Part shown: positions 1-45,829 of the stretch, one piece after another
Layout: every line of letters starts with the position of its first letter
How positions within the stretch are numbered: position 1 is the stretch's first letter
IMG/VR virus record: IMGVR_UViG_3300028920_000028
Strand: one strand, 5' to 3'
DNA length: 64,000 nucleotides
Origin: an uncultured virus (IMG/VR IMGVR_UViG_3300028920_000028)
Taxonomy: Duplodnaviria > Heunggongvirae > Uroviricota > Caudoviricetes
Position numbers and translations under genes: made by a program
Notes under the pieces: generated by a model
What the model was told of the DNA's origin: nothing
Seen by the model: only the letters and a program-made list of their open reading frames with translations
The model's database searches: none

Positions 1-11664
<11,664 letters not shown>

Positions 11665-17460: not shown

Positions 17461-17490
17461 TTTACACGGGTGGTTTTGAAAAAGTATATT
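17461..17490 (+). promoter_or_regulatory. Sigma70-like early promoter
   Basis: TTTACA-N18-TATATT with AAAAG before the -10, followed by a GGAGG ribosome-binding site for coaC. Confidence 0.65.
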
Positions 17491-25789: not shown

Positions 25790-25818
25790 TTGACCTCCCC
25801 GGCAGGATATACTATATT
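25790..25818 (+). promoter_or_regulatory. Sigma70-like promoter
   Basis: TTGACC-N17-TATATT upstream of 25906. Confidence 0.7.
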
Positions 25819-25856
25819 GAAACCAAGGCCGCGCAGGCCGTAGCTTCCGCCGAGGT

Positions 25857-30931: not shown

Positions 30932-30947
30932 AGGCACGCTTGTTGCT
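30932..30947 (+). promoter_or_regulatory. Sigma54 (-24/-12) promoter
   Basis: AGGCACGCTTGTTGCT matches the TGGCACG-N4-TTGCW consensus with exact GG-N10-GC spacing; palindromes at 30833-30882 upstream. Confidence 0.7.
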
Positions 30948-31002
30948 TTCCTGTATCGGATCATCTTTCACAGCCATCCAAATACCAACGGAGGAGGAAG
31001 GC

Positions 31003-31263
31003 ATGCCCGGAAGAGACCAGACGGGGCCGAACGGCCAGGGACCGCTGACAGGCAGGGGATTCGGTGACTGCAACGAGGTGCTGAGGTCCGTCGGCCGCAC
31101 CCTCGGGGGCGGTTTCGGAGCAGGCTTCGGCCGCGGCTTCGGCGGCGCCTTCGGACGCGGGCGCGGGTTCGGGCCCGGCGGCCGCGGGCAGCGCAACGTC
31201 TACCGCCAGACGGGGCTGACCGGCTGGCAGCGCGGCGTCCGCAGGGGGCCGACCGACAGCTAG
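31003..31263 (+). CDS. DUF5320-family Gly/Arg-rich protein (86 aa)
   Basis: MPGRDQTGPNGQGPLTGRGFGDC N-terminus, GFGRGRGFG repeats, YRQTGLTGWQR; GGAGGAGG ribosome-binding site. Confidence 0.8.
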   Translation: MPGRDQTGPNGQGPLTGRGFGDCNEVLRSVGRTLGGGFGAGFGRGFGGAFGRGRGFGPGGRGQRNVYRQTGLTGWQRGVRRGPTDS

Positions 31264-32296: not shown

Positions 32297-32335
32297 GGTA
32301 ACACCCATCCCGATCATGCCCACTTTCATCATTAC

Positions 32336-32480
32336 AGTGTCATGATAGTGTCATGATTTTGTGCGTACACTGTACGTACAGCCTAACCATCGATGTTTCA
32401 ATCCCTTGCACATTTTGATGTCAAGAAATGTGCGTACGGGCGCCGTACAATGTTCGACGCTTCATGATCTTACATCAAAT
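32336..32480. repeat. AT-rich non-coding block with direct and inverted repeats
   Basis: AGTGTCATGAT x2 in tandem (32336-32357); TGTGCGTAC at 32360 and 32429; TGTACGTACA palindrome; inverted pair TTTGATGTCAAGA (32414-32426) / TCTTACATCAAA (32468-32479). Confidence 0.75.
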
Positions 32481-32485
32481 TTCAC

Positions 32486-32514
32486 TTTACAGCCAAACCC
32501 CATAAAGGTATATT
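32486..32514 (+). promoter_or_regulatory. Sigma70-like early promoter
   Basis: TTTACA-N17-TATATT. Confidence 0.7.
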
Positions 32515-32596
32515 AACGATGCGCGCACGAGTCGTACAACCGCGAAGCCCGCAGGCTCCGCGACACCACAAAACGCGTCGAGGAAGGAGTGTAGAG

Positions 32597-33208
32597 GTGC
32601 TGCGATTCCAATACAAGACCGACAACGTTTTCAACGAAGTCCTCGAGCGGGCCCTCGGGGAGACCATCGACTCCATCAAGGAGTCGCTCAGATACGAGTC
32701 CGACGGGGATGACAGGTTCGACCTCATCCAGCACATCTGGGAGGACGATATCAAGAGGGCCTTCGGCACGCCGGAGTTCCTCCTGCACGTCCTGGAGGCC
32801 CTGCTCGAGGCCCACCAGAGCAAGGATCTGTACATGCCGACAGATTGGCACTTCCTGCTTCTGGATCGGATACTGCACTCGTGGTGCGACTGCTACGGCG
32901 ACATGGCCGGCGAGGCCGACAACGACTTCCTGTTGAGGGACGACGACGGCGACCCCATCATGGAGGTCAAATTCAGGGATGTCGTGGAAACCTTCTTCTG
33001 GGACACCGACTACGACTTCCCGGCCGATCTCGCCGCGCAACTGCGGGGAACCGTGGTGCAGGAGCAGTCCGACGTGAGCGACGTCGCGCTGAACGCGTCC
33101 ATGCGGAAGTCCGTGGACTTGGAGGACGTCAACCTGGTGCCGTGGCGGGACGGGGACGACCGGGGGGAAGCCGGCTGCTGGTGGAAGGAGGAGTTGGAGG
33201 AGGCGTAG
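32597..33208 (+). CDS. Highly acidic hypothetical protein (~203 aa)
   Basis: AAGGAG ribosome-binding site, then GTG; hand count gives about 50 D+E versus about 19 K+R. Confidence 0.8.
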   Translation: MLRFQYKTDNVFNEVLERALGETIDSIKESLRYESDGDDRFDLIQHIWEDDIKRAFGTPEFLLHVLEALLEAHQSKDLYMPTDWHFLLLDRILHSWCDCYGDMAGEADNDFLLRDDDGDPIMEVKFRDVVETFFWDTDYDFPADLAAQLRGTVVQEQSDVSDVALNASMRKSVDLEDVNLVPWRDGDDRGEAGCWWKEELEEA

Positions 33209-33212
33209 TGTA

Positions 33213-33244
33213 GCCGCGCCCGTTCAAGGCGCGTGAGTTGAAAC
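33213..33244 (+). CRISPR. Solitary type I-C-like CRISPR repeat unit (candidate RNA anti-CRISPR); not an array
   Basis: GCCGCGCCCGTTCAAGGCGCGTGAGTTGAAAC, 32 nt, with a CGCGCC/GGCGCG stem and an 11-nt tail; matches the I-C layout GTCGCGCCC-N5-GGGCGCGTGGATTGAAAC. Confidence 0.7.
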
Positions 33245-33307
33245 AGGCAGGCGTCAGTTATGAGGCCGTGGCCCGCCACGGAAACACCAAACAACTCCCG
33301 ATGTACC

Positions 33308-33339
33308 GCCCCCACCGGTCGCTGACGATCGGTGGGGGC
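33308..33339. terminator. Strong hairpin between convergent transcription units
   Basis: GCCCCCACCGGTCG-CTGA-CGATCGGTGGGGGC; no clear U tract. Confidence 0.5.
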
Positions 33340-33340
33340 C

Positions 33341-33520
33341 TCATCGAAGCGTGATGACCGTCCTCTCGGATCCCGGCTCCACGTGCATGTCGACGGCCTG
33401 CCCCCAGTGCAGGGGGCCGCGGCCGTACACGGGCGTCACCGTGCGCGTCTGGCTGATCTCGACGTTTTCGTGGGTTCGGTTGTACAGGACCCTGCCGCCC
33501 CGGACGACCAGCACCGTCAC
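33341..33520 (-). CDS. Hypothetical protein (59 aa)
   Basis: Manual translation MTVLVVRGGRVLYNRTHENVEISQTRTVTPVYGRGPLHW...ITLR; GTG overlaps the upstream stop. Confidence 0.5.
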   Translation of the reverse strand: MTVLVVRGGRVLYNRTHENVEISQTRTVTPVYGRGPLHWGQAVDMHVEPGSERTVITLR

Positions 33521-33831
33521 GGGCTCCTCGACGGGGGCAACGGCACATCGGGTAGATCAAGGTCGTGATGTAGAATGCGCGTGAGTTCCCTTCTGTTGGC
33601 TGGGATCATGAGGTAGTTCTCGAAAATCTGCCTTTCAGTCTGCTTGAAGTCCTCCTTCTTGATGAAGAATACTTCGCCGCACCCGAAGCATCTGTATCCT
33701 ACCAGTTCCCTCGCGGGGTTGTCATACGGTTCTATCTGCCTGTTATTGCAAGAGTGGTTCCGTATGGCCCATAGCCACTCATCCGCATCGAGATAATGGG
33801 CGCCCATCGTCTGCCTATCCTCCGCCGCCAT
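33517..33831 (-). CDS. Small putative Zn-binding protein (104 aa)
   Basis: HSC...CFGC; AAGGGG ribosome-binding site. Confidence 0.7.
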   Translation of the reverse strand: MAAEDRQTMGAHYLDADEWLWAIRNHSCNNRQIEPYDNPARELVGYRCFGCGEVFFIKKEDFKQTERQIFENYLMIPANRRELTRILHHDLDLPDVPLPPSRSP

Positions 33832-33885
33832 GTCGATCCCCTTGTTGAGGGCTTCTGTGTGAATATACTATCTTAGAGTCGGTCG

Positions 33886-33917
33886 TCCGCGCCCGAAAAC
33901 GGTGCGCGGGTTGAAAC
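33886..33917 (+). CRISPR. Second solitary type I-C-like repeat unit
   Basis: TCCGCGCCCGAAAACGGTGCGCGGGTTGAAAC, 32 nt; shares CCGCGCCCG-N15-TTGAAACA with the unit at 33213; TATACT -10 box at 33864-33869 just upstream. Confidence 0.6.
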
Positions 33918-33941
33918 ACCAGTGAGATGGCCGCACCAGTT

Positions 33942-35276
33942 TCAATGCTCCCAAGCGCGGTAGTTCACTCCCCTCTCCTGCAGCTCCCGTATCAACGGGG
34001 CCGATGAACGGTCGTCGAACGACGGGTCATGCCATTCTACGAGCAGTTCCGAGACGTGGTCGATGGCCCCGCTGTCGAGCAGCCTGCGCACGATGCCGTA
34101 CTCGGCGCCCTCCACGTCCAGCTTCAAGACGATGTGCCTTCCCTTGAAGGACTCCACCACCGCCGCGGCGTCCACGCAGGCGACGCGCAGGGGGTTGTCC
34201 CTGTCCAGCTTCTCCTTCTTCTCGCGGAACAGCGTGCTGCCCGCATCACCCCAGCGATCCACCGCCCGGTAGAAGTCGGATGTCCCGTCGGTCGTCCACA
34301 GGCATTCGGACTTGACGGCGATGTTGTATTGCCTGTTGCGATCCCGCACTGCCTCGAGGTCGGGCAGATGCGCCGTGTCCGGCTCGTAGAAGCACACATC
34401 GCACCCCAAGAGGTCGGGTCGGTTGTTCAGGAACAGACCCACTGACTCGCCCTTGCGTGCGCCGCCGTCGATGAAGACCTTCCCGGCCCCCGGCGCCCGG
34501 CGCTCGCTCACCAACCCCATTTCCGCATACTGCCCCCATCGGTCGCCGACGATTGGCGGGAGGCGGGGATCCAGCCTCCCCAGGAACTCAAAGTAGCGCC
34601 CTCGCCCGAGGATGTCCTCGCCGCGGGACAGGAGCCGCTCTAGGCGCGCCGTGTCCTTCTTCTCGGGTGTGTTGTCCTGTGTCTCCGAGAAACTTTCCAG
34701 CTTGTACCTGATGGCGTCCACGCCGCCCAAGTAGGAGAAATGCCAGCCGGCGCGGGGTATCCACACGTGGTTGGCCCTGTGCCCGCGGAGCCTCTGCAGC
34801 GTGGTCGCGCGCACGGCGCCGATGGTCGAGACGAGCGTCCCCCTCCAGGTGTAGGGCGACATGCAGTTGAGGTAGTAGTAGAACAGAAGCTGGTCCAAGG
34901 CCACCGTGCCGTACTTTTCGGATTGCTCACACGCGTAGGGCAGCGAGTGGGGGTTGGGGATCTCGTCGACGTCCGACATCACCACGTACCTGGGGTTGAT
35001 GTCCTCCGCGGCCCTCTGGAGCGCGTCGCGGGCGGAGAACTCCCTCTCCCATGGGTTGTCGGTCGCCAGGAGTTCCGGGATTTTGCGGTACACGATCTTC
35101 TCGTGGTACGGCTTGAACCTGCCCCAGTTGGCCTCCAGGTTGAAAGGTTTGGGGTTGCCCGTGAAGGTATATGCCGACTCCACGATGACGAAGGCATCCA
35201 CGTGCGGGGCCAGCATCGCCAGGCGCATCTGCAATAGATCCAACTCATTCAGGAACAGGAAGCAGTCGGCTATCAT
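33942..35276 (-). CDS. GT17-like (beta-1,4-GlcNAc transferase) glycosyltransferase fused to an FkbM-family methyltransferase
   Basis: DCFLFLNELDLL, VESAYTFTGNPKP, MSDVDEIP, AGWHFSYLGG; then FIDGGARKG, LKLDVEGAEY, LLVEWH. Confidence 0.9.
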   Translation of the reverse strand: MIADCFLFLNELDLLQMRLAMLAPHVDAFVIVESAYTFTGNPKPFNLEANWGRFKPYHEKIVYRKIPELLATDNPWEREFSARDALQRAAEDINPRYVVMSDVDEIPNPHSLPYACEQSEKYGTVALDQLLFYYYLNCMSPYTWRGTLVSTIGAVRATTLQRLRGHRANHVWIPRAGWHFSYLGGVDAIRYKLESFSETQDNTPEKKDTARLERLLSRGEDILGRGRYFEFLGRLDPRLPPIVGDRWGQYAEMGLVSERRAPGAGKVFIDGGARKGESVGLFLNNRPDLLGCDVCFYEPDTAHLPDLEAVRDRNRQYNIAVKSECLWTTDGTSDFYRAVDRWGDAGSTLFREKKEKLDRDNPLRVACVDAAAVVESFKGRHIVLKLDVEGAEYGIVRRLLDSGAIDHVSELLVEWHDPSFDDRSSAPLIRELQERGVNYRAWEH

Positions 35277-35479: not shown

Positions 35480-36189
35480 TACGGGTGCAGGCTGTAGAGG
35501 TAGTCGCTCGCGGCCTGCGCCCGCTCCCGCTCCAGACGCTCGTAGGCTTCCAATATGAGCGGCATCGCCTTCTGGGACAGATGGACGCCGTCCCTGAGAT
35601 ACTCCCCCTTTGACGTCATGTCCAAGTTCACGAGCTCACGAAACACCGACAGGACGACGCCCTTCGGGAAATGGTGCCTCAGGCGCGCTGTGAAGGCCTC
35701 TGTGGCCTCGTTGCGCTCCCGGGTGGTTCCCAGGTGGGGGTAGGGGTTCTCCTCGCTCACACGGGCCTCCGGGTCGTCGTGGTTGCACGTGGGGGGCGGG
35801 GCGAACAGCATGACGTCCCTGCCGGAGTCCATGAGGTTGCCGGCGAACCCGGCGTACCTGTCTGCGGCCTCGCCGGCGACATCCCCGATGATGCGGCCCT
35901 GGGCCTTCGCCTGCTTCACCAGGTGGACGCGGCAGTCGATCTCCCCGAACGAGAGCATGATCCGGTCCTCCTTGGGCAGCCCTTGGACTATGGACATCAC
36001 CTTCGAAACGACCTCGTGCGCCGGGTTGCCGAAGCTGTAGGCCAGGTATCCGCCGATGCGATAGGTCCGGAACGGGGGAAGCGAGTCTTGGGGGCAGGGG
36101 TGTCCGCTGGACACGATGTCTTTCCCCGTGAACACGCTCACATGGCTGTCGCCTATGCAGTGTGCTGTAATATCATCTACTGTTTTCAT
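35476..36189 (-). CDS. SGNH/GDSL-family hydrolase or acyltransferase
   Basis: IGDSH, FGEIDCRVHL, DGVHL. Confidence 0.8.
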   Translation of the reverse strand: MKTVDDITAHCIGDSHVSVFTGKDIVSSGHPCPQDSLPPFRTYRIGGYLAYSFGNPAHEVVSKVMSIVQGLPKEDRIMLSFGEIDCRVHLVKQAKAQGRIIGDVAGEAADRYAGFAGNLMDSGRDVMLFAPPPTCNHDDPEARVSEENPYPHLGTTRERNEATEAFTARLRHHFPKGVVLSVFRELVNLDMTSKGEYLRDGVHLSQKAMPLILEAYERLERERAQAASDYLYSLHPY

Positions 36190-36287
36190 AAGAGGCCTTG
36201 TCTTGCGAATACCTGTACGATACCCCCGACTTTCAAAAAACCCAAAAATCATACACGTATAGGTCGTGTCCTACGCTTGCGAGATAA

Positions 36288-36902
36288 TCACCTTCTGGAC
36301 AGAAGATTCCACTTATTGTTCAACTCACGAAAATCGTATTCATCGTAGAACTCAAAATCGCGTGCGTTTCGAACTTTTGTAGGTTCCTTATTCAAAGAGT
36401 CATGTATTAGGTCATAGTCTATAGACTCTTCTGAAGAAACAAAGCGTATAATACTAATTATGTATTTAATCCTGTTTGTACCAACTATGTCGCTGTATCT
36501 CACTTTAAGGTTTTTTGATTCAGGTAGGATCCACTTGTCCATAAACCCTAACCAATAAGGCGCTTTTTCCTTTAGAAAGTTCTTCCAAGATTCCAAGTTG
36601 TGACTAATCTGTCCTTTGGACACAAGGAAACTATAATACGATGTCAAGCACCCCTCGGGGTTTCGGTATTGAATAATATGACTCCAACCTTTTATGCACT
36701 TATATTTTAATCCAAAATCATGATTCTTCTGGACATTAGTACTTGATTCTATACACGGGACTCTTTGACAGTGTCCATAAAATTCACAGTAGTGCATAGA
36801 ACTTTCAAAGTAATAGTTCAATATTCTCATCAAATAGTGATGACCGCTACGTGGAAACGTAACGACTTGAGTTCTATTTAAGCTTTTCACAGTTTTGGTC
36901 AT
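36288..36902 (-). CDS. Sulfotransferase-like protein
   Basis: TFPRSGHHYL (PSB loop), KNHD, QYRNP..LTSYY, VRYSDI. Confidence 0.75.
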   Translation of the reverse strand: MTKTVKSLNRTQVVTFPRSGHHYLMRILNYYFESSMHYCEFYGHCQRVPCIESSTNVQKNHDFGLKYKCIKGWSHIIQYRNPEGCLTSYYSFLVSKGQISHNLESWKNFLKEKAPYWLGFMDKWILPESKNLKVRYSDIVGTNRIKYIISIIRFVSSEESIDYDLIHDSLNKEPTKVRNARDFEFYDEYDFRELNNKWNLLSRR

Positions 36903-38053
36903 CTTATAACCTGTGTATCGTATCGATCTGCCAGACTTGGGTTTCTAATAATCTCTTCGTACAAAACGCTACCTGGCATAGCTATATACTTACTAACATT
37001 AACTCTATCTAATTTAAGTTGTGATATTAAGGTGTTAGTGGCAATACGGTCTTCCTCCTCCTCGTATGGTGTTTCCGTTAGAAAGCTACCATACACCTTG
37101 ATACCTTCGGATTTACAGGTTCTAACGAACCTATGTATCTGGTCTACTGTTATATCCTTCTTGTATCGTTTTAAGAGCTTTGGACTACCCGTTTCTATAC
37201 CAACATACAAAGAAACACACCCCGCTCTTTTCATAAGGCTAATCTGGTTATTTGTTAGATCGACTCTGGATTCACATTTCCATGAAAACTCCAAACCCCT
37301 ACTCAAAACTTCTTCACAGAAAGATACTAGTCGCTGTTTACTTGCAGTAAAATTGTCCTCTCTAAAATATATTCCTTTAGAGTTGTGGTCTGAGATTAAG
37401 TATCCTATATCGTCTAACACTCTTTCCACCGAATGATATGTCCATCTCCGACCATAGATCCCTCTCGTACTACAAAACTCGCATCTGTTCGGACATCCCC
37501 TACTTGATGAATACGTGTATACGTTTTTCACCGAGGGGCACTCCTCTATAGTTCGATTATACTTAGGAGCCGAAAACAGTTCATAAGGAACTCTAGGCAG
37601 GTCGTCCAAGTTCTCTATGCGCCCGGCTACTATGACCCTATCTCGTAGGCTTTCATCAAGTATGCCCCGCAACACATACTCTCCCTCACCGCGAACAACA
37701 TGGTCAAAATATCGGAGGAGGGTATCAGGTAAGATTGTGGGATGCGCACCACCCGCGATTAGCTTGCCCTTAAATCCTTGGCTACGTATTTCCCTCGCAA
37801 GAATTGAAGCTTCTTCATAGCAGGCTGAATTAACCTGTATACCAATCGCCTCGACACCCCCCAAAGAGGGCAGCTTATCGCCTGCGTAGATATCACATAT
37901 GGACGGTTGAAACCCACAAGACCGAAGATACCCCGCTATGTACCCAAGTCCCAACGGTGCTCGGATGTCTCCCAGATGAAAACCGTATTTAGGACTTGTC
38001 GGCATCGGGGGAGTAAGTAGAAGGATCCTGGGGCTACTCTTGAAGCCGGACAT
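36899..38053 (-). CDS. B12-binding radical SAM protein (class B methyltransferase-like)
   Basis: PLGLGYIAGYL, AGGAHPT, VRGEGE, SSRGCPNRCEFC, EDNF, GIETGS. Confidence 0.9.
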   Translation of the reverse strand: MSGFKSSPRILLLTPPMPTSPKYGFHLGDIRAPLGLGYIAGYLRSCGFQPSICDIYAGDKLPSLGGVEAIGIQVNSACYEEASILAREIRSQGFKGKLIAGGAHPTILPDTLLRYFDHVVRGEGEYVLRGILDESLRDRVIVAGRIENLDDLPRVPYELFSAPKYNRTIEECPSVKNVYTYSSSRGCPNRCEFCSTRGIYGRRWTYHSVERVLDDIGYLISDHNSKGIYFREDNFTASKQRLVSFCEEVLSRGLEFSWKCESRVDLTNNQISLMKRAGCVSLYVGIETGSPKLLKRYKKDITVDQIHRFVRTCKSEGIKVYGSFLTETPYEEEEDRIATNTLISQLKLDRVNVSKYIAMPGSVLYEEIIRNPSLADRYDTQVIR

Positions 38054-38795
38054 ACAGCCTACTTTCTTTCATCTTCTTTTTCTTGTACTCTATTTGCTCT
38101 TGTGTGTTATAGGAGAATCGTACGGAGTTAGAAACCGCCGGCTCATAGTTGCTCTTTACAAGTTTCAAAAAATCTTGACTATCGCAAGCATCGCACAGAC
38201 TGCCAAGTTTGTTAAACCCGGCTCTGCAGCAGCGCATAGTGTAGTCTACATGACCGTAACCGCACCACCCGAACTCTGTAGTATCAAAATATCCTACTGT
38301 ATCAATTACTCTCTTTGTAAACGTCCAAAAGGCCCCTTGTATGTGGTTGTCATCTGAATTATACTTTTGAAGTAGCCCTTTTGGCTCTTTTACGACTTGT
38401 AGTTTTACGTCGTCATACCAATTTGGATCCATAAATACTAGATGGTCATACCCCGACAAACGAACGGCCAATTCGTATTTTGAATCCCACCCTTTTTTGA
38501 TAAATACTACATCATCATCGCATTTGAAACCTATATCAAATTCGTATTCACAAGACTTTTGGAGAATAGTGTTTGTCTGCCGATGGATACCTACACGGTC
38601 ATTTTTGATGAGTACAACATCAACACCACTAAACTGTAAACTCTCCAAAAATTCTATTGTGCCGTCTGTAGATCCATCATCAGCAACCACCAAGATCCAA
38701 TTAGAACTTTTGTCCCTAGTGCTGTTCCAGCTTTTCAGCAGATTGGACAAATAAACCCTTCTATTATATGTGGTTACTCCAATAAAATAAGTCAT
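38034..38795 (-). CDS. Glycosyltransferase family 2
   Basis: GVTTYNR, VADDGSTDGT, KCDDDV, GYGHVDYTMR. Confidence 0.9.
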   Translation of the reverse strand: MTYFIGVTTYNRRVYLSNLLKSWNSTRDKSSNWILVVADDGSTDGTIEFLESLQFSGVDVVLIKNDRVGIHRQTNTILQKSCEYEFDIGFKCDDDVVFIKKGWDSKYELAVRLSGYDHLVFMDPNWYDDVKLQVVKEPKGLLQKYNSDDNHIQGAFWTFTKRVIDTVGYFDTTEFGWCGYGHVDYTMRCCRAGFNKLGSLCDACDSQDFLKLVKSNYEPAVSNSVRFSYNTQEQIEYKKKKMKESRLYVRLQE

Positions 38796-39601
38796 AACGT
38801 GAAAGATCCTACAAGTAGATCGTTGTCCTTGGCAAATCTGCTGATCGTGTCGTTTGACGACGCCGCAAACTCAGGAGTGTACCCACGGTTGAATTTCTGG
38901 GATTCGGGGTGGCCCCCAAACCAATGAACAGCATATGAAGTGTCGGGTATCTGGAACTCACCGGAGTGAATCCGGACTACATCATCAGAACTTGAGATGG
39001 GATAGAACGCCTCATTCTCCGTCCTGTATACCTTCTCTTTGGATTTCTGATCCACGAATTTGGAACACCGTTCATTGAGATAGATGAAGAACTGCGGGCC
39101 AATGCAACAGTAGTCGTTCGCGTCAAAATGGGTGTCAATTTCAGAAAAGGCGATTTCAGGCAAAAGAGATTCCTTTGACGCGCCCAATACCCCCACATAC
39201 GGCATCGAACGACATCCGTACACAAAATCATAACCTCCCAGGTCATCGAACGGCCGGCATACGATTTGGTCGACATCCAAATACCAGCCGCCGCCGCGGA
39301 GAACATCCCATCGGAAGAAATCAGAAACGAAGTTGGGGGCGACTCTTTTCCCGTTGGAATAAGACCGTATTTCGATGCCCAGGCCATCCCACTCCGATGA
39401 GAAATCGGACACATCATCCTTGGACATGAAATCTTGACGGTCACGGGTGCTCCAAGTGCGAAAGCCCTCCTGCTTTTCGCTTTTGTATAGCACCATCTTC
39501 CATCCAGGGTGGAATTTACGAAACGAACGTAGGGTGAGAAGCCTTAAGAAAGAGAACGGTGTTCCGTCACCCCAAAAGAAATAAGCAATCTTGGGTATCA
39601 T
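38792..39601 (-). CDS. GT32-like (DXD sugar-binding) glycosyltransferase
   Basis: MIPKIAYFFWG, SDFFRW, GGWYLDVD, IGPQ, YAVHWFGG. Confidence 0.85.
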   Translation of the reverse strand: MIPKIAYFFWGDGTPFSFLRLLTLRSFRKFHPGWKMVLYKSEKQEGFRTWSTRDRQDFMSKDDVSDFSSEWDGLGIEIRSYSNGKRVAPNFVSDFFRWDVLRGGGWYLDVDQIVCRPFDDLGGYDFVYGCRSMPYVGVLGASKESLLPEIAFSEIDTHFDANDYCCIGPQFFIYLNERCSKFVDQKSKEKVYRTENEAFYPISSSDDVVRIHSGEFQIPDTSYAVHWFGGHPESQKFNRGYTPEFAASSNDTISRFAKDNDLLVGSFTL

Positions 39602-40299
39602 GTCAGCCTTTCGACCTCGGGGGGGATTTCTCCACGGCGATATTCTCCAACATATCTGCCCAAAATCGATGCATCGCCGTCATGGGTGACGGCCCTCTTC
39701 GCGGTGTCCAATTCGATGACCTGAATTTCCGGACATGAGCGAATTCCCTTCTTGAAGATCCATGCGCGTTCCGTCATGTCCCTGTCGGCGTAGTAATATT
39801 GGTAGGCGCTGCTGTACATTCCTATGTCACGGAACACGCTCTTTCGATAGACCCCGAAGTTCATGCAGTAATCTGGACCGACGTAGGCTATCCACTGCTG
39901 ATTTGAGGTCCTCCATTTGTTTAGATCTTTTGCGTCCTGTACGTTGCCCCTAGCCCAATGGAATATGAATACATCATAGGGTTCGTCGAGGATCTCGAAC
40001 ACTTTGCCCCAAGGTGTCGCCATGAGAACATCGTCATTCCATTGGCAGACGTTTTCAAACGATGACGCACGGATTCCTGCGTTCATGAAATGCGGATAGG
40101 GACTCCGACGGCCGATTTCAATGACCTTGAGCCTGTCGCAGGATCGTTCCCGCAGATATTCCAAAGTGCCGTCCGTCGAACCGCCGTCGACCAAAACGAG
40201 TTCGATGCGGTTGTGCGCCTCTATCGTGTTACCGAGAACGAGCGGCAGCAGACCCCTCCTGTTCAACGTCCCGGTCACTATGCTGAGTCCGCTACTCAT
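39598..40299 (-). CDS. Glycosyltransferase family 2
   Basis: SIVTGTLNR, VDGGSTDGT, WNDDV, YYADRD. Confidence 0.9.
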   Translation of the reverse strand: MSSGLSIVTGTLNRRGLLPLVLGNTIEAHNRIELVLVDGGSTDGTLEYLRERSCDRLKVIEIGRRSPYPHFMNAGIRASSFENVCQWNDDVLMATPWGKVFEILDEPYDVFIFHWARGNVQDAKDLNKWRTSNQQWIAYVGPDYCMNFGVYRKSVFRDIGMYSSAYQYYYADRDMTERAWIFKKGIRSCPEIQVIELDTAKRAVTHDGDASILGRYVGEYRRGEIPPEVERLT

Positions 40300-40925
40300 A
40301 ACTTGCTACTCTCGTCGTAACCAAATTCCTTAAGATCCTCTTCAAAGTATCCTCGTAGGAATTCAATGTCAGCGAGCGTGACGAGCTTCCTGGCTTCCTT
40401 CGGCCGCGGCGATTTGATATGACGCCCATGTATATGTGTTTCCCGGTCGTACTCCGAAAAGTCTTTGAATAACGAAGCCCTTCTCATGTTTGACTCAAGG
40501 GATGACTGCAACCTAACGGATTTCGTTTGAGTTTCACAAAAAGAAACCTTGAAGTACATCGAGTAGTTTCTAAATAGATAATCGTAATCGTTGTAAAACA
40601 ATGAGTAGTTAAGCATTAAACACTTTCCTGTGTCACGATATCTTTTGACGTCGCCCACGTTCTTCTTGATCCATTTGGCTGCCTTTTTTATATCAACCGA
40701 AGTAATCTTGGAATTGGTATCGATTCTCGCTTGGCTTATGGTCGCATCGATGAAGTTTCGATAGCTACATACACAAAGGCTATAATCTACTCCCTCCAAG
40801 AAACCCTGCACTTTCCTTACCCTCGCCGATGGAAAAAGCCACTTCAGCGTTTGGTAAATTAGAGTACTGCCGCTACGCGGGAGGCCTGCCGAAACCAGAT
40901 CTTTGCCGGATAGGTCATTACTCAC
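40296..40925 (-). CDS. Sulfotransferase-like protein
   Basis: AGLPRSGSTLIYQ, SYRNFIDATIS, LKEFGY. Confidence 0.75.
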   Translation of the reverse strand: MSNDLSGKDLVSAGLPRSGSTLIYQTLKWLFPSARVRKVQGFLEGVDYSLCVCSYRNFIDATISQARIDTNSKITSVDIKKAAKWIKKNVGDVKRYRDTGKCLMLNYSLFYNDYDYLFRNYSMYFKVSFCETQTKSVRLQSSLESNMRRASLFKDFSEYDRETHIHGRHIKSPRPKEARKLVTLADIEFLRGYFEEDLKEFGYDESSKL

Positions 40926-42490
40926 AGCTTACCCATATCTTTCACAAAAAGCTTGTCCTCCACCACGACGGCATCTATTTGCGTATCACGTAAAACGTCA
41001 AGCGCCTCCTTAACCGTATTGAGGATAGGCTTTCCTTTGATGTTGAAAGAGGTGTTCAACAAAACCCTTTTGCCTGTCAAACGATTAAACTCCCCCAATA
41101 GGTCATAGAAGTACTTGTGACTCTCCCTTGTGACCGTCTGTATCCGTGCGGTACCGTCGCAGTGCGTAACGGCACCCAATGATGTTCTCCACTCCTCACG
41201 CACAGGGGCCGCGAACGACATAAACGGGGAATCCCCGTCGAACTCGAAGTACTTACCGCAGTCCTCTTTGCGAACAAACGGGGCGAACGGCCTGAACCAT
41301 TCCCTGTACTTCACTCTCGCGTTGAGCGTGTCCTTCATATCCGGAATGCCGGGATCGCATACAATGCTCCTGTTACCAAGGGCCCGCGGGCCGCACTCGG
41401 CCCTTCCACGCGCTATTCCCACTATCTTCCCTGCGGCAATCAACTCCGCGACAGTTCCGATATCCGCCTCCCTTGCCCCCCGTGCGGTCGCCTGCGCCGA
41501 TAGATCACCCAAATCGAAAAGGTTGGGGCCAAGGTACGCAGGGATCTCTCTTCTTTTTGGGGGATTCTTCAGCAAGAGCATGCCGAGGGAAAGGCCGCAA
41601 TCGTTCGGACTGGGGGGCACGTAAACGGGCACCCCATGTTTCAGTCGTATCTTTTCGTTTGTCAGCACATTCAAGGCGCACCCACCAGCGAGACATATGG
41701 GCAACCCTCGATGTTTCTCGATGATCGGGTCGATTGATTCGAACACCGCCCCCTCGAACGTGCTTTGCGTGGTGGCCGCAACGTCATACGAGATCTTACC
41801 CTCGAGCGCATCGACATGGAAGTCGAACCCCGCCTTTTTTCCCAGATTTTGTAGCATCCGCTTGTCCTGCCCGTTGCTTCGAAAGAACCCGGCCAAATGC
41901 GCCTCCAAGTCAAAAAGCGGATCACCGTAGGCGCAGAGGCCCATTAGCTTACCCGGCATGGACAGACCGCTTCCGGATTTCCTTATCTCAGAGAGGGGCC
42001 ATCCCATGCATAAGTAGGCCGTTCCAAGGTCATAGGGAAACGAGGCCAGCTTTTCTATCTTGGTGCCGCAGGCGTGGAACACGTTGAAGAAGGAGATGCC
42101 CACAAGATCGTCGCCGCCCCCATCGTAGGATATGACAAGCGCCTCCTCGAACGGGCTTGTGAAGAAAGAAGACGCGGCATGCGCGGAATGGTGTGGCACG
42201 TCCTGGAACTCACGCACACCAAATATCTCCGACACCAGGCCTTGCTTCGCCTGCGGAAGTTGATTCGTGTAGCACACATCAAACTTGATCTCGCCGAACT
42301 CCGAGATCAAGCAATCTCTTATTTTGCCCAAAACATTCGCGCAACCGGGATTCTCCTCGAATTGCTTCCAAAGAAAATCGTACCGATTTCCCGTAATCCT
42401 CTCAACCTCGAATGTTCTGTACGTATCACCAATACGGAAGGACAACGACGCATCGTGTGACGTGTATGCAGCCATGCTGTTGTTTGCCAT
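40922..42490 (-). CDS. O-carbamoyltransferase (NodU/CmcH family)
   Basis: HDAS, HHSAHAASSF, YDGGGD, GKLMGL, AGGCALN, GPRALGNRSI, REWFRPFAP, HCDGTARIQTV, LLNTSFN. Confidence 0.95.
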   Translation of the reverse strand: MANNSMAAYTSHDASLSFRIGDTYRTFEVERITGNRYDFLWKQFEENPGCANVLGKIRDCLISEFGEIKFDVCYTNQLPQAKQGLVSEIFGVREFQDVPHHSAHAASSFFTSPFEEALVISYDGGGDDLVGISFFNVFHACGTKIEKLASFPYDLGTAYLCMGWPLSEIRKSGSGLSMPGKLMGLCAYGDPLFDLEAHLAGFFRSNGQDKRMLQNLGKKAGFDFHVDALEGKISYDVAATTQSTFEGAVFESIDPIIEKHRGLPICLAGGCALNVLTNEKIRLKHGVPVYVPPSPNDCGLSLGMLLLKNPPKRREIPAYLGPNLFDLGDLSAQATARGAREADIGTVAELIAAGKIVGIARGRAECGPRALGNRSIVCDPGIPDMKDTLNARVKYREWFRPFAPFVRKEDCGKYFEFDGDSPFMSFAAPVREEWRTSLGAVTHCDGTARIQTVTRESHKYFYDLLGEFNRLTGKRVLLNTSFNIKGKPILNTVKEALDVLRDTQIDAVVVEDKLFVKDMGKL

Positions 42491-42499
42491 GCGTCCTTC

Positions 42500-43312
42500 C
42501 TAAAAGAAGCGTCTGAAGCACGAACGCCAAAGATGCTTTTCAAATGAAACGTATTCCAAGGCGGCCTCGAAATTCCTTTTGACAGCCGGTAATCTGCGCT
42601 CGTAGTCCTCCTCCCCAAGCGAGCCGATAGCAGCGTCCAAGCCATCGAGCGACTCGAACAGGATCATTCCGTCCGGGTCGAAGAACTCGTGCGCTTTCGG
42701 GAATCCCCAATAGATCGGTACGGTGCCGGTGAGAAAACAGTCCATGATCTTCTCGCTGAAGTACGAATTTACCGCACAGTTCTCGATGGCAATGCTGTAT
42801 CGGTAGTAGGCCAGGCCGTCAATCTTTTTAGCTATAGGCTTGTATCCGCGCCCGAATAACCCCTCTATCCGATCCTTGAACCTGTCAGCGACGACATGTC
42901 GTAGCCTCTGACCATGCGTGAACCGCTTGTCTGATGCTATCATCGACAGGTTCTTCATCTTAATGTTCACCCCCCTGTAACCCTCGTCTATCCATGTCGT
43001 ACCGTATGGATAGTACACGAAATTTTCGGTGCCGGCGAGCCTCTCATCGAACGTGCAGACAAAGTCAAACGCATCGTGGTGCTGCTCCACAAATCTGTAT
43101 ATTTGGGGGTCTACGACGACCGGCTCAAACAGTACGGCCACCTTATGTTCACTACCGCTGCTCAGCGCCTCTGAAAGGAACCGATCCGTGAAAACTGTTA
43201 GATAGCTGTCGCGTGGCTGCCTGTCCCACACCCACTCAAACCACGAACACGGCCTCTCGGGAAATCTTTCGCTGAAAAAATTCAAGTCTCGTATATGAAT
43301 TTGATTCATCAT
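42500..43312 (-). CDS. GT10 (fucosyltransferase-like) glycosyltransferase
   Basis: YRYSIAIENCAVNSYFSEKIMDCFLTGTVPIYWG. Confidence 0.9.
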   Translation of the reverse strand: MMNQIHIRDLNFFSERFPERPCSWFEWVWDRQPRDSYLTVFTDRFLSEALSSGSEHKVAVLFEPVVVDPQIYRFVEQHHDAFDFVCTFDERLAGTENFVYYPYGTTWIDEGYRGVNIKMKNLSMIASDKRFTHGQRLRHVVADRFKDRIEGLFGRGYKPIAKKIDGLAYYRYSIAIENCAVNSYFSEKIMDCFLTGTVPIYWGFPKAHEFFDPDGMILFESLDGLDAAIGSLGEEDYERRLPAVKRNFEAALEYVSFEKHLWRSCFRRFF

Positions 43313-44250
43313 GTAAGCCCCAAACTTTCAGCGAGAATCTCCCTCTTCCTCTGGATGATGTCCCGCCTCACGGGGTCGTCGTAGAAGTAGAACGACTGCA
43401 GCAGCTCCAGCATCCAAGAGTACTTCTTGTTCTGCCCCGACGCGGGCTCGTGGTGGAGGTGGTACACGTCGATGGGCGGGTCGTCGGCGTAGGCCGCGGC
43501 GCCCAAGAAGTGGTTCTGTATGATGCCCTGGCCCTTTCCGTGCAGGATCTCCAATTTGGTCCAGAAGAAGGAATCCTCCGGGCTGTACCCGTAGAACAGT
43601 TCCGGATCGTACCCGCCGACGGCCTCGAAGTCATCCGAGCGCACGACAACCGACCCGCCGGGGCTGCCCGGCTTCGAGGGGGTCGAGTACTCGTTCATCC
43701 ACCCCGGGGCGTTCTCGTACTGCCCGGCCTCGATGAGCGCCGTCGCATAGGACGATAGCATCCGCACCCGCCTCTCCCTGTACGGCTGAAGCCACTTGGC
43801 GCCCTTTGCCAGGTGCTCCCGCACCTTCCCGAAGAACCCCCTCTCCACGAGGATGTCGACATCGTGGAAGATGCACCACTCCGTCCTCGGCGCCTCCATG
43901 AATCCCATGTTGTAGCACAGGGACTTCTCAAACAACCCCTCCGACCTCTTGTCGTCGGGCGGCACGCACACGTACGCGACGCAGGCCTCGCGGCACAGGT
44001 CGGGGTAGACCGGCTCGGCGGCGTTCTCGATGACGACGACGCGCACCGAAACGTTGGCGGACGCCGCCGACTCTCTGATGTGGGCGAGGCAGGGCTTGAG
44101 AAACCTTTGCCTCCCCCGAACGGGTATCAAGAGGTTGTAGTCCGCCCCGCCGCCCGGGATGATGGCCTTGTATCCGGGCGACCATTTGATTGCGCCGTAG
44201 TCGATTCGGTTGGACTCCATGTCCTTCAGGAACTGCTCCGGAGACAGCAT
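43309..44250 (-). CDS. GT-A glycosyltransferase with a GT7-type C-terminal motif
   Basis: LIPVRGR, KSLCYNMG, FHDVDIL, VGGYDPELFYGYSPED, YHLHH. Confidence 0.85.
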   Translation of the reverse strand: MLSPEQFLKDMESNRIDYGAIKWSPGYKAIIPGGGADYNLLIPVRGRQRFLKPCLAHIRESAASANVSVRVVVIENAAEPVYPDLCREACVAYVCVPPDDKRSEGLFEKSLCYNMGFMEAPRTEWCIFHDVDILVERGFFGKVREHLAKGAKWLQPYRERRVRMLSSYATALIEAGQYENAPGWMNEYSTPSKPGSPGGSVVVRSDDFEAVGGYDPELFYGYSPEDSFFWTKLEILHGKGQGIIQNHFLGAAAYADDPPIDVYHLHHEPASGQNKKYSWMLELLQSFYFYDDPVRRDIIQRKREILAESLGLT

Positions 44251-45122: not shown

Positions 45123-45829
45123 TTCCTGACGTAGTATTGGCGGTTAACGTCCCAAAGGGCGTCGCTTATCGCGTAGCTCCGCGCGTGCGCCTGATGAAGG
45201 GTCAGAAGATCGTCCCGGTCGGAAAACCTGACACGCGCCGCCTCAACCTGGTTGCGGAAGTCGTCATCGTCGTACCCTACCCCTTTGGCATACTCCTCAT
45301 CGAACCCGCCCACTTTCCGATAGGTGCCCGCCGACAGCGCGGTGCAAAAATGCAGCCTTCGATGGTTGTGCCGGGTGTGGACCAGCCACTGCCCATCATT
45401 GTACTGCAGCGAGGGGTACTCGCCGGCCGACGACGTGACGGCCACGTCCCGGCACCCGCACACCACATACACGCCCGGGTCGGCCTCGAACTCCCCATCC
45501 AGCCCCGAAAGCACATCCGCGTGGTGCATGACCTCGGGGTTCGTGAGCAATATGAATTCCCCCCCGCACTTCCCCGCCCCGAAGTTGAAGGCGGGCGAGG
45601 GGTTGCTGCACCCGCTCGGCGACGGGTAAACGACCACGGGTATGTCCATGAACTCCCTGAGCGTCGACAGCAGGGCGTCGTGCAGCCTGTGGCTGTTGAC
45701 ATCCTTCAAGTCCTCCACGACCACCACCTCATAGTCGTCGCGCCCGGCATAGTGGTGCCGGAACGACAGGAGCGTGTTGCGGAACTCCTTGGCGCGGTCG
45801 TGGTAGGGCATGAGGACGCTGTACTTCAC
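45110..45829 (-). CDS. Glycosyltransferase family 2
   Basis: GTG start; YSVLMPYHDR, LTNPEV, VGGFDEEYAKGVGYDDDDF. Confidence 0.85.
   Translation of the reverse strand: MKYSVLMPYHDRAKEFRNTLLSFRHHYAGRDDYEVVVVEDLKDVNSHRLHDALLSTLREFMDIPVVVYPSPSGCSNPSPAFNFGAGKCGGEFILLTNPEVMHHADVLSGLDGEFEADPGVYVVCGCRDVAVTSSAGEYPSLQYNDGQWLVHTRHNHRRLHFCTALSAGTYRKVGGFDEEYAKGVGYDDDDFRNQVEAARVRFSDRDDLLTLHQAHARSYAISDALWDVNRQYYVRKWQR

Follow-up and report, generated by a model that had tools for sequence, protein, structure and literature searches.

The window (the whole 64,000-nt stretch of DNA that was analysed) contains a 132-nt intergenic gap with solitary, divergent mimics of two types of CRISPR repeat, I-C and I-G. 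The gap is located between a plus-strand gene for an acidic protein and a convergent two-gene operon on the minus strand. The mimics can possibly serve as decoys of the Racr type that end the two convergent operons, a reading that is preferred here with a confidence somewhat short of even. Their origin from CRISPR repeats, their solitary state, their strands, and their position behind genes are established from the sequence. The stop codon of the acidic gene is at 33206-33208. Four nt later there is a 32-nt unit, the type I-C-like unit 1 (33213-33244, plus strand), and a further five nt on there is a 36-nt unit (33250-33285), in which the type I-G-like unit 2 covers 33251-33285 on the minus strand. 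Units 1 and 2 stand tail to tail, 6 nt apart. Unit 3 (33308-33350, plus strand) consists of a 14-bp hairpin and an I-G-like cut-site and handle segment. An earlier note on this DNA had given the coordinates of all three units, which were borne out by reading the sequence. It had also described lone mimics of more than one subtype behind the acidic gene, with neither an array nor cas genes. This core was upheld, with the cas search covering 120 reading frames; the assignment of one unit to type III-A was not.

Type I-C repeats are 32 nt long, and processing by Cas5c/Cas5d leaves an 11-nt 5' handle. Unit 1 has the same 32-nt length and is made up of a 6-bp stem (CGCGCC/GGCGCG), a 7-nt loop, and an 11-nt tail, TGAGTTGAAAC, which is a natural variant. 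The 6-bp stem and the entire 11-nt tail are held in common with natural arrays. Unit 1 differs from type I-C repeats in being solitary, in the loss of the seventh stem pair, and in its 7-nt loop. Position 2 is a C where T is found in all 39 of the aligned natural I-C repeats, and the longest run identical to the closest of the aligned natural I-C repeats is 17 nt. Model R1 was built from 39 natural I-C repeats and gave unit 1 26.0 bits (E = 8.6e-5), the best match in the window, a score that is inflated because the source arrays for R1, as for model R2 below, were fetched with patterns from the units themselves. The next match in the window reached 14.3 bits. In unrelated natural DNA (approximately 226 kb in total), R1 stayed at or below 15.1 bits over 189 kb and at or below 11.9 bits over the other 37 kb. 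The natural I-C consensus, at up to three mismatches, has a single site in the window, which is unit 1 with one mismatch. Thus, the type I-C likeness that the earlier note had assigned to unit 1 was borne out by both model R1 and the consensus pattern, with chance excluded by the shuffles. Among species genomes, the pattern CGCGCC-N5-9-GGCGCGTGRRTTGAAAC picks out CRISPR arrays at 122 or more loci, and the exact tail of unit 1 is the dominant tail in four of these 122 (for example L078, with 81 copies).

Unit 2 resembles the repeats of type I-G, formerly named type I-U. On the minus strand it reads GTTTCCGTGGC-GG-GCCACGG-CCTCAT-aac-TGACGC, with a 6-bp stem and a tetraloop. Type I-G repeats, with examples from Thioalkalivibrio (PMC9638904) and Thiodictyon (PMC5944118), are 36 nt long and processed by Csb2. 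This nuclease is a tight binder of the hairpin, and its cut falls 4 nt 3' of the stem (PMC9638904). Unit 2 keeps this cut-site context, CCTC/AT (the slash being the cut), and has the same GTTTCCG, paired stem, and following CCTCAT as type I-G repeats. In contrast to them, its loop is shortened from 6 to 2 nt, and 3 inserted nt break the handle. Model R2, built from 17 natural I-G repeats, had its best match in the window on unit 2 (24.3 bits, E = 1.7e-4, likewise inflated), and its maximum in 172 kb of other natural DNA was 12.5 bits. All 26 pattern positions of the I-G repeat core are matched by the minus strand of unit 2. The I-C match of unit 1 appeared in 0 of 100 shuffles, and the I-G match of unit 2 likewise in 0 of 100. 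The stem of unit 2 carries a compensatory change, a T-A pair where natural repeats have C-G, G-C, or A-T. A pattern derived from unit 2 was found at 119 or more metagenome loci, most of which are arrays of 72-74-nt period; 103 of the loci have a dominant repeat with TGAAGC at its end. The repeat of these arrays has been printed as type I-U for Thiodictyon (PMC5944118).

The earlier note had likened unit 2 to the type III-A repeat of M. tuberculosis. This did not hold, as 19 of 36 positions are identical (ungapped, counted by eye) to the M. tuberculosis variant in PMC8245516. The first 8 nt and the last 8 nt each agree at seven positions, but in the middle only 5 of 20 agree and the stem is lost, so the III-A reading was rejected. 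The plus strand of unit 2 had no Rfam match. The resemblance of both ends to III-A is explained by the I-G reading: the end ACGGAAAC is complementary to GTTTCCGT, with which I-G repeats start at the 5' end, and GCGTCA to the TGACGC tail.

In unit 3, a 14-bp hairpin (33308-33339, -34.5 kcal/mol) is followed by CCTC/ATCGAAGC, and the tail GGCCTCATCGAAGC ends at 33350. The 4-nt offset from the stem and the 8-nt handle are as described for Csb2, whereas the stem has twice the length of the type I-G stem and an unrelated sequence, and of the GTTTCC 5' end there is only a vague trace. The segment 33337-33350 agrees at 13 of 14 nt with the natural I-G segment GGCCTCATTGAAGC, which comprises the cleavage site and the handle. 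The claim of an I-G-like tail one base off therefore stands at 13 of 14 nt, in a weaker form, since a tail with at most one mismatch also appears in 2 of 100 shuffles. At up to two mismatches it was reached by 36 of 100 shuffles, and R2 gave no report on unit 3 at E ≤ 10. The tail does overlap the stop of a minus-strand frame, as had been noted; this is the stop of the 59-aa frame, at 33341-33343. The two I-G-like units, 2 and 3, face away from each other.

No CRISPR array or mini-array, meaning at least two like repeats at spacer distance, was found in the 64-kb window, which is part of a record of 181-464 kb. The earlier note had reported no spacers, and indeed unit 1 has no other copy in the window even with three mismatches allowed; neither R1 nor R2 has a second strong match there, and the distance from unit 1 to U4, a weak unit described below, is 669 nt. 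It had also reported no cas genes, and PADLOC identified 0 cas families in 120 reading frames between 14 and 64 kb. This set was made up of frames of at least 150 aa and of three small ones beside the gap; the collagen-like genes lie outside it, in 1-14 kb. Rfam gave no match at gathering thresholds; two sub-threshold matches to CRISPR-DR models reached 13.3 bits (cut-off 45) and 17.7 bits (cut-off 35). Unit 1 probably falls below the published 41.1-bit SRUFinder cut-off by our own estimate of blastn scores against the natural repeats that were fetched, although the SRUFinder repeat file may contain a closer one.

The genes around the gap can indicate how the units might be transcribed. The acidic gene (32597-33208, plus strand) encodes a 203-aa protein with a pI of 4.2, and its cluster representative is also 203 aa long; use of a longer frame from 32519 is unlikely. 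Before this gene is a promoter-like site, TTTACA-17-TATATT (32486-32514, plus strand), in which 10 of the 12 positions fit the consensus. The second hexamer of the site copies a recurring GTATATT motif, which also precedes the plus-strand genes at 17485, 26568, and 31356. The minus-strand operon consists of a 104-aa frame (33517-33831) with a CxxC pair and a 59-aa frame (33341-33520), which starts with a GTG that shares bases with the 104-aa stop codon (GTGA). The motif AGTATATT (33862-33870, minus strand) is approximately 30 nt upstream of the ATG of the 104-aa frame and, judging from its recurrence, is a putative promoter; the TATACT/AGTATATT palindrome is a better fit to the minus-strand operon. 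The sense strand is the plus strand for units 1 and 3 and the minus strand for unit 2, an arrangement that, with these promoter-like motifs, fits two convergent transcription units. The earlier proposal of several decoys on one transcript is contradicted by these strands. Both strands of 33209-33350 were scanned for intrinsic terminators (a GC-rich hairpin followed by a T-run) and none was found, and terminators without a T-run could still lie there. A minus-strand transcript would meet a very stable hairpin before unit 2, and this may stop transcription.

Racr RNA anti-CRISPRs work as decoys, and the mechanism proposed for this locus is modelled on them. The I-C-like unit 1 would be transcribed in sense within the 3' end of the acidic gene mRNA. 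A transcript of the other strand would carry the I-G-like unit 2 in sense, beyond the end of the 104-aa/59-aa operon, and the long hairpin of unit 3 would bring a second I-G cut-site and handle motif to the plus strand. Cas5c of type I-C could then bind, and perhaps cut, the unit RNA, and the Cas6-like domain of Csb2 could do likewise for type I-G. The bound repeat-recognizing proteins, together with Cas7, would be drawn into dead-end complexes, away from real crRNAs. On this reading, the record would belong to a phage that infects a host with both systems. Units 2 and 3 keep a stem followed by CCTC/AT, which is the context read by Csb2, and for this reason they were counted in favour of the decoy reading.

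RacrIC1 lies 11 nt behind an acrIC5 homologue, with which it forms one bicistronic RNA (Camara-Wilpert et al. 2023, PMC10651486), and unit 1 lies 4 nt behind the acidic gene. As with Racrs and SRUs, the locus has a lone, intergenic, repeat-like hairpin with a handle and without an array or cas genes. It differs from them in having two subtypes in one 132-nt gap, on opposite strands, and in being probably far more divergent than the SRU cut-off allows. In the SRUFinder screen, 17,823 repeats served as the blastn reference, with minima of 41.1 bits and 90% coverage (PMC10651486). Going by the SRU table in supplementary file 3 of that paper, the I-C word occurs 2,014 times and the I-G word 50 times, twice per row in 15 rows viewed, which corresponds to approximately 25 rows; in the wording of its main text, 'I-G' and 'different subtypes' each have 0 occurrences (PMC10651486). 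RNA anti-CRISPRs are so far represented by one experimental study and by catalogues built by near-identity to host repeats. The locus suggests that decoys for different subtypes may be neighbours in one element, with both strands of a convergent gap in use. It also suggests that working mimics may keep just the stem base, cut site, and handle, which would put them under the cut-offs that screens usually apply. A possible target for RNA anti-CRISPRs is type I-G with its nuclease, Csb2.

The handle word TTGAAAC occurs four times in 32297-33945 against 0.12 expected, an excess of approximately 30-fold, and none of 20,000 local shuffles reached four. Because of this excess, weaker units may flank the gap. 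U0 (32395-32432, minus strand) is an AT-rich 7-bp hairpin followed by GGGATTGAAAC, which agrees with 10 of 11 nt of the commonest natural I-C tail. R1 gave it 14.3 bits (E = 0.15), from the tail alone, and its fold z-score is -2.7. Taken alone, U0 is within noise, and it may be counted only as part of the TTGAAAC excess. U4 (33882-33917, plus strand) is 36 nt long and consists of GTCG, a 9-bp bulged hairpin, and GGGTTGAAAC. Its R1 score of 11.5 bits (E = 0.92) is within noise, its fold z-score is also -2.7, and it has no Rfam match. When aligned to natural I-C repeats of 32 nt and 37 nt, its likeness to them needs indels. U4 as a unit with its own promoter was rejected, as the promoter scan lists no plus-strand site, the palindrome fits the minus-strand operon, and the R1 score is within noise. 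A TTGAAAC at 33939-33945 (minus strand) is the inverted-repeat partner of the U4 tail and overlaps the stop of a glycosyltransferase gene (33942-35276). Another at 25817 (plus strand) was not counted as a unit; it is directly behind a promoter-like element, and no hairpin was seen there by eye.

A wider reading of the locus is possible, if on the doubtful side. It would be a bidirectional anti-CRISPR module for two subtypes, with an I-C decoy behind the acidic gene and an I-G decoy behind the 104-aa/59-aa genes. The handle hairpins at 32395 and 33882 would extend it to a 1.7-kb island, and the flanking proteins would be new Acrs. If this were true, it would be the first RNA inhibitor for type I-G. 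Divergent mimics that keep the protein-contact parts alone would then be a class missed by identity-based screens.

The units could also be captured relics. Pieces of I-C and I-G arrays would have been recombined in and would now be decaying, with the hairpins kept as transcript-end or RNA-stabilizing structures and no anti-CRISPR activity. This is rather unlikely. The strong divergence would suit decay, as units 1 and 2 reach 24-26 bits where canonical repeats reach 51-53 bits and other solitary or terminal units 33-49 bits. Unit 2, with its shortened loop and 3-nt handle insertion, is in keeping with this as well. All three hairpins are exactly at the expected terminator positions of convergent genes, but none of them has the T-run of an intrinsic terminator. 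The placement of units on different strands, which a single decoy transcript would not need, is compatible with capture, but random capture would hardly be expected to bring two subtypes into 132 nt and to leave the handle word in 30-fold excess nearby. Moreover, the parts that are kept are those that Cas proteins read (the tail and stem base of unit 1, and the stem and CCTC/AT of units 2 and 3), and the stem of unit 2 is maintained via a two-sided change.

Rather than acting as decoys, the units might be guide-type RNAs, similar to Cracr RNAs or hijacked single guides, in which a handle and an adjoining short guide direct the host Cascade to a cas or toxin promoter or to another target. Cracr RNAs are viral crRNA-like regulators, described in the preprint on them as multiplexable and sometimes co-encoded with Acr proteins (bioRxiv 10.1101/2024.10.29.618823). 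Repeat-like handles are a feature of these phage RNAs and also of the units at this locus. Viral regulators with guides of approximately 19-21 nt exist for types I-C, I-E, I-F, I-B, and V-A (bioRxiv 10.1101/2024.10.29.618823). At this locus, 21 nt separate the unit 1 handle from the next hairpin, and the tail-to-tail geometry is read directly from the R1 and R2 matches. However, a Cracr needs a repeat-guide-repeat arrangement in a single-type array, with a guide directed at a promoter of the host, and at guide distance no further repeat of like type was seen here. By that preprint's account, Cracr RNAs encoded together are always aimed at variants of a single type, whereas two subtypes are present here, and I-G is absent from the types it reports (bioRxiv 10.1101/2024.10.29.618823). 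A guide role is thus improbable. With units 1 and 2 tail to tail and 6 nt apart, each 'guide' would be the complement of the repeat of the other subtype.

An antisense role for unit 2 is still less probable. The plus-strand form of unit 2 would be the complement of a host I-G repeat and would pair with repeats of the pre-crRNA, blocking or misdirecting processing. Unit 2 would indeed be antisense on a transcript of the acidic gene, with no terminator-like site in between, and its complementarity to natural I-G repeats extends over 26 pattern positions. However, no precedent was found in the literature examined, and the repeat core is itself a hairpin, so that pairing would compete with folding. 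In addition, the minus-strand transcript could equally carry unit 2 in sense. It is very improbable that these are ordinary GC-rich terminator hairpins with a chance likeness to CRISPR repeats: the curated Rfam models stay below their thresholds, the unit 3 tail alone recurs in 2 of 100 shuffles, and U0 and U4 are within noise, but the I-C and I-G matches appear in 0 of 100 shuffles even at up to three mismatches, the best window-wide matches of two independent repeat families are 6 nt apart, and no cross-match above 15.1 bits occurs in approximately 400 kb of natural DNA.

The acidic protein belongs to an unnamed family of approximately 200-aa proteins, with 178 representatives at E ≤ 1e-3 in a profile search and a median pI of 4.47 (148 proteins). 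It has no Pfam, PHROG, or PADLOC family match and no PDB sequence match. Its predicted structure has a pLDDT of 92.2 with a 65-sequence alignment and 40.8 with two sequences. At E ≤ 0.001, a Foldseek search with the model had no match in either PDB or BFVD, and VIA gave a Z of 4.2 at best. With 178 representative clusters, a confident model, and no known fold, this family is a possible protein partner of the decoys. Its members sit on metagenome contigs of up to 28.6 kb. For the 59-aa frame no family was found, including by PADLOC. The search for relatives of the 104-aa frame returned the frame itself alone, and it has no PDB sequence match. The ESM Atlas search gave no usable match. No relatives of the locus were found in INPHARED phages (DNA and protein), in IMG/VR, for which an alignment of 12 acidic family members was used, or in JGI metagenome contigs.

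No hallmark phage genes (capsid, terminase), tRNA, or rRNA were found within the 64-kb window. Most of the reading frames scanned have no family match, and RNA-repair and tail-fibre-like (collagen) matches are present. The record is likely viral and phage-like, given the few family matches, the RNA-repair and collagen tail-fibre-like matches, the recurring promoter motif, and the lack of tRNA and rRNA. A Logan contig, an independent assembly of possibly the same DNA run, spans the region with 0 differences.

The decoy reading would involve a host with both systems, and genomes were explored for I-C and I-G arrays together. I-G arrays are present in none of three Chromatiales-type genomes and in none of the five genomes behind the I-C loci L009, L012, L078, L086, and L098, of which L078 and L012 carry the exact tail of unit 1. 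Of five genomes with I-C-type arrays, one has them; the genome with both I-G-type and I-C-type arrays is G068. Solitary I-G-like units were also identified elsewhere. L262, the sole one found in IMG/VR, is, like unit 2, a lone I-G-like unit; it is in a viral contig and has no I-C-like unit within 1 kb. A second, L239, is on a 66.8-kb contig. Both score higher than unit 2 and have no I-C-like unit beside them in the DNA examined. The L239 unit (35.9 bits) follows a stop codon at a distance of 15 nt, directly precedes the next gene, and has the same shortened 2-nt loop form as unit 2.

The gap at 33209-33340 is bounded by converging genes, the acidic gene (32597-33208, plus strand; TAG stop at 33206-33208) and a 59-aa frame (33341-33520, minus strand). 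The GTG start of the 59-aa frame shares bases with the stop of a 104-aa frame (33517-33831, minus strand). Unit 1 (33213-33244, plus strand) is a 32-nt sequence, GCCGCGCCCGTTCAAGGCGCGTGAGTTGAAAC, that begins 4 nt past the acidic-gene stop. Unit 2, as a 36-nt element (33250-33285), starts 5 nt past unit 1. Unit 3 begins with a 14-bp hairpin (33308-33339; -34.5 kcal/mol, z -6.2), followed by a tail, with GGCCTCATCGAAGC ending at 33350. The coordinates reported in the earlier note are right for all units. A single sequencing run, a marine sediment metagenome and possibly the window's own source, was found to contain the stretch; its Logan contig covers 32300-34100 without a difference or a gap, so there is no sign of misassembly.

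Unit 1 had been described as a type I-C mimic. A pattern made from its stem and tail, CGCGCC-N5-9-GGCGCGTGRRTTGAAAC, matches CRISPR arrays in at least 122 species-genome loci. Among the 122 loci listed, the dominant tail is TGGATTGAAAC in 104, TGAATTGAAAC in 9, TGGGTTGAAAC in 5, and TGAGTTGAAAC in 4. The last of these is unit 1's own tail, and its four loci include one 81-copy array. The top match in the window to R1, a covariance model of 39 distinct natural I-C repeats (alignment A2), is unit 1, with 26.0 bits (E 8.6e-5) and a runner-up of 14.3 bits; in unrelated natural DNA the ceiling was 15.1 bits (189 kb) and 11.9 bits (37 kb). The natural I-C consensus, with up to 3 mismatches allowed, matches the window only at unit 1 (1 mismatch) and matches none of 100 shuffles. 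Unit 1 departs from natural repeats at position 2 (C not T) and in the seventh stem pair; its loop is different as well, a part that varies among natural repeats too. By its sequence, unit 1 is a type I-C-like repeat, as had been proposed.

On the minus strand, unit 2 has the sequence GTTTCCGTGGCGGGCCACGGCCTCATAACTGACGC. Type I-G was formerly called I-U. For Thiodictyon syntrophicum, the 36-nt repeat of type I-U is listed as GTTTCCGCGGCGAATTCGCCGCGGCCTCATTGAAGC (Table 6 of PMC5944118). The pattern GTTTCCG-N-GGC-N1-8-GCC-N-CGGCCTCAT matches at least 119 metagenome loci, mostly arrays, with a period of 72-74 nt. Of the 119 loci listed, 103 have a dominant repeat with a TGAAGC end, and the dominant repeat measures 36 nt at 108 of the 118 listed loci that match a longer pattern. 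A second covariance model, R2, was built from 17 distinct natural I-G repeats (alignment A3). Its top match in the window is the minus strand of 33251-33285 (24.3 bits, E 1.7e-4), with a runner-up of 12.0 bits; other natural DNA, 172 kb in all, gave no more than 12.5 bits. The 26-nt I-G repeat core matches unit 2 with 0 mismatches, and it matches 0 of 100 shuffles even at 3 or fewer. In the R2 alignment, unit 2 has a loop of 2 nt versus 6 in natural repeats, a stem pair altered on both sides to T-A, and 3 nt inserted ahead of TGACGC. Rfam gave a single hint, CRISPR-DR16 on the minus strand, at 17.7 bits (below the cut-off of 35). The earlier note had read the plus strand of unit 2 as III-A-like. 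Compared by eye with a M. tuberculosis repeat variant (PMC8245516), that strand is identical at 19 of 36 positions, with 7 identities in the first 8, 7 in the last 8, and 5 in the middle 20, and the stem is lost. Both III-A-looking ends are simply complementary to the 5' end and tail of an I-G repeat. Unit 2 is a type I-G-like repeat on the minus strand and not a III-A repeat.

Unit 3 lies 52 nt from unit 2 and overlaps the stop codon of the 59-aa frame. Its I-G-like tail was borne out in part. The natural 14-nt I-G segment GGCCTCATTGAAGC matches 33337-33350 at 13 of 14 nt, and shuffled windows contained such a site in 2 of 100 cases at up to 1 mismatch and in 36 of 100 at up to 2. The window scan with R2 missed unit 3 because the stem there is unrelated and has double the length. 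The I-G repeat sense strand is given as GTTTCC...CCTC|ATTGAAGC, and Csb2 is described as cutting 4 nt 3' of the stem, leaving an 8-nt handle, and as binding the hairpin (KD ~50 nM) and not the handle (PMC9638904). At the sequence level, unit 3 shares this geometry. It could simply be a transcript-end hairpin, and its support is weaker than that of units 1 and 2.

Within the window, the units are solitary. No second copy of any unit was found there, and none of 120 reading frames (14-64 kb) matched a cas family in PADLOC. TTGAAAC, with which the I-C handle ends, is present 8 times in the window, counting both strands, and 4 of these are within 32297-33945. Shuffles that preserve local composition gave a mean of 0.12; ~3 in 10,000 reached 3 or more, and none of 20,000 reached 4. 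Two of the surrounding sites are possible units, not established, since each alone is within R1 noise: an AT-rich hairpin with GGGATTGAAAC (32395-32432, minus strand; 14.3 bits) and a 36-nt GTCG-hairpin-GGGTTGAAAC (33882-33917, plus strand; 11.5 bits), the tail of which pairs with GTTTCAA at 33939-33945. At 25816-25823 (plus strand), ATTGAAAC stands directly behind a promoter-like TTGACC-N-TATACT in a divergent gap; it was left out of the repeat-like units because no hairpin was seen by eye.

Promoter-like motifs are present on both strands. Upstream of the acidic gene is TTTACA-17-TATATT, the second hexamer of which is a copy of a GTATATT motif that also stands ahead of plus-strand genes at 17485, 26568, and 31356. 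On the minus strand, the motif precedes the 104-aa frame (33862-33870). Unit 1 would therefore be in sense on a plus transcript, 4 nt behind the acidic gene, and unit 2 would be in sense on a minus transcript, behind the complement of the long hairpin. In its longer form, A(A/G)GTATATT, the motif is found at 17485, 25813, 26568, 31356, and 32509 (plus strand) and at 33862-33870 (minus strand), 10-45 nt upstream of start codons, and it is probably the -10 box of the element's own promoters.

Solitary repeat units and RNA anti-CRISPRs (Racrs) are established (PMC10651486). The supplementary table of that paper includes many I-C units and one contig with two I-G units; 'I-G' occurs 50 times, twice per row in 15 rows, which corresponds to ~25 rows. 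Its main text has 0 occurrences of 'I-G' or 'different subtypes.' In one genome (G068), the I-G repeat pattern matches 279 times and the I-C-type tail pattern 38 times. Together with PMC5944118, this makes a host with both systems realistic. The sole I-G-like lone unit found in IMG/VR has no I-C-like neighbor within 1 kb, and no other instance of two subtypes arranged in this way was found. A lone I-G-like unit with a 2-nt loop, as in unit 2, is present at 301-332 (plus strand) of a 66,771-base contig (L239). It lies 15 nt past a stop codon, and the next small gene, with its ribosome-binding site and ATG, follows directly. This lone unit is likely a solitary repeat unit in another element.

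Units 1 and 2 are very probably derived from CRISPR repeats. The earlier observation was real, and its reading, of I-C, III-A, and I-G mimics as decoys on one early transcript, was half right. Units 1 and 2 may tentatively be considered Racr-type decoys for I-C and I-G, a role given slightly less than an even chance. It is rather unlikely that they are captured fragments in decay whose present role is to end transcripts. With R2, canonical I-G repeats reach 50.6-53.3 bits, those that are terminal or solitary 32.9-48.9, and the lone unit of L239 (66.8-kb metagenome contig) 35.9; the gap units are clearly more diverged than any of these. No hairpin of the gap has the T-run of an intrinsic terminator in a terminator scan. 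A role as guide-type RNAs is distinctly unlikely, and antisense action is improbable. The R1 and R2 scores are somewhat flattering, since both models were trained on arrays fetched with patterns taken from units 1 and 2 themselves and the pattern-fixed columns are invariant by construction. Three points are independent of model training: natural arrays of each family occur at more than 100 loci, no shuffle matched, and the top matches of two different repeat families are 6 nt apart. Chance resemblance is highly improbable. The published solitary-repeat screen demands 41.1 blastn bits and 90% coverage (PMC10651486). The longest run of unit 1 identical to its closest aligned natural repeat is 17 nt, and we reckon that both units would escape that screen.

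The acidic protein most likely starts at 32597, which gives 203 aa with a pI of 4.17. A profile search of 1.84 billion representatives found 178 relatives at E<=1e-3, 65 at <=1e-10, and 7 at <=1e-30. Members of the family have ~200 aa, a median pI of 4.47, and conserved motifs including PTD-HF-LLDR and FFWD-DYD. Ten were looked up, and all are metagenomic and named only 'hypothetical protein.' A confident model from 65 sequences (pLDDT 92.2, pTM 0.88) had no Foldseek match at E<=0.001 in PDB or BFVD, and its best Z in a wide VIA search was 4.2. The genes acrIC5 and RacrIC1 are 11 nt apart on one RNA (PMC10651486). The acidic gene and unit 1 resemble that pair in position and charge only, which gives no evidence that the acidic protein is an Acr.

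The element is read as a very large phage or a similar mobile element. The cluster of the acidic protein is represented on a 181,259-base contig and that of the 104-aa protein on a 463,769-base contig. The window has a G+C of ~65%, 4-nt gene overlaps, and genes for giant collagen-like proteins, RNA repair (HAD_SAK_2 with NUDIX, Tpt1), a thymidylate kinase, an SLT transglycosylase, and many glycosyltransferases. It contains no capsid or terminase gene, no tRNA, and no Rfam family, and a search of IMG/VR did not recover the record. No family was assigned to 28 of 51 frames tried against Pfam or to 21 of 31 tried against PHROGs. One collagen-like frame (1-11664, minus strand; >3,888 aa) runs off the window start. 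Another collagen-like gene, with 922 aa, comes next (11686-14454, minus strand). Both have 18-nt periodic Gly-X-Y repeats, and their PHROG 'tail fibre' matches seem to be driven by these. The HAD_SAK_2 ('Swiss Army Knife' RNA repair) and NUDIX domains are fused (16417-17400, minus strand), and the Tpt1/KptA RNA 2'-phosphotransferase domain is in a 549-aa protein (50727-52376, minus strand). The gene at 30940-31263 (plus strand) encodes a small DUF5320-domain protein (E 2.7e-8). The region 36000-44000 is a low-GC island (43-55% versus ~65%), and its composition suggests that it was acquired separately. It holds a tightly coupled minus-strand operon with glycosyltransferases, a B12-binding radical SAM enzyme, and a carbamoyltransferase. 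Among sugar-modifying genes, 45826-47061 (minus strand) encodes a radical SAM protein for which PADLOC gave a match to its prokaryotic viperin models (pVip, E 1.5e-15).
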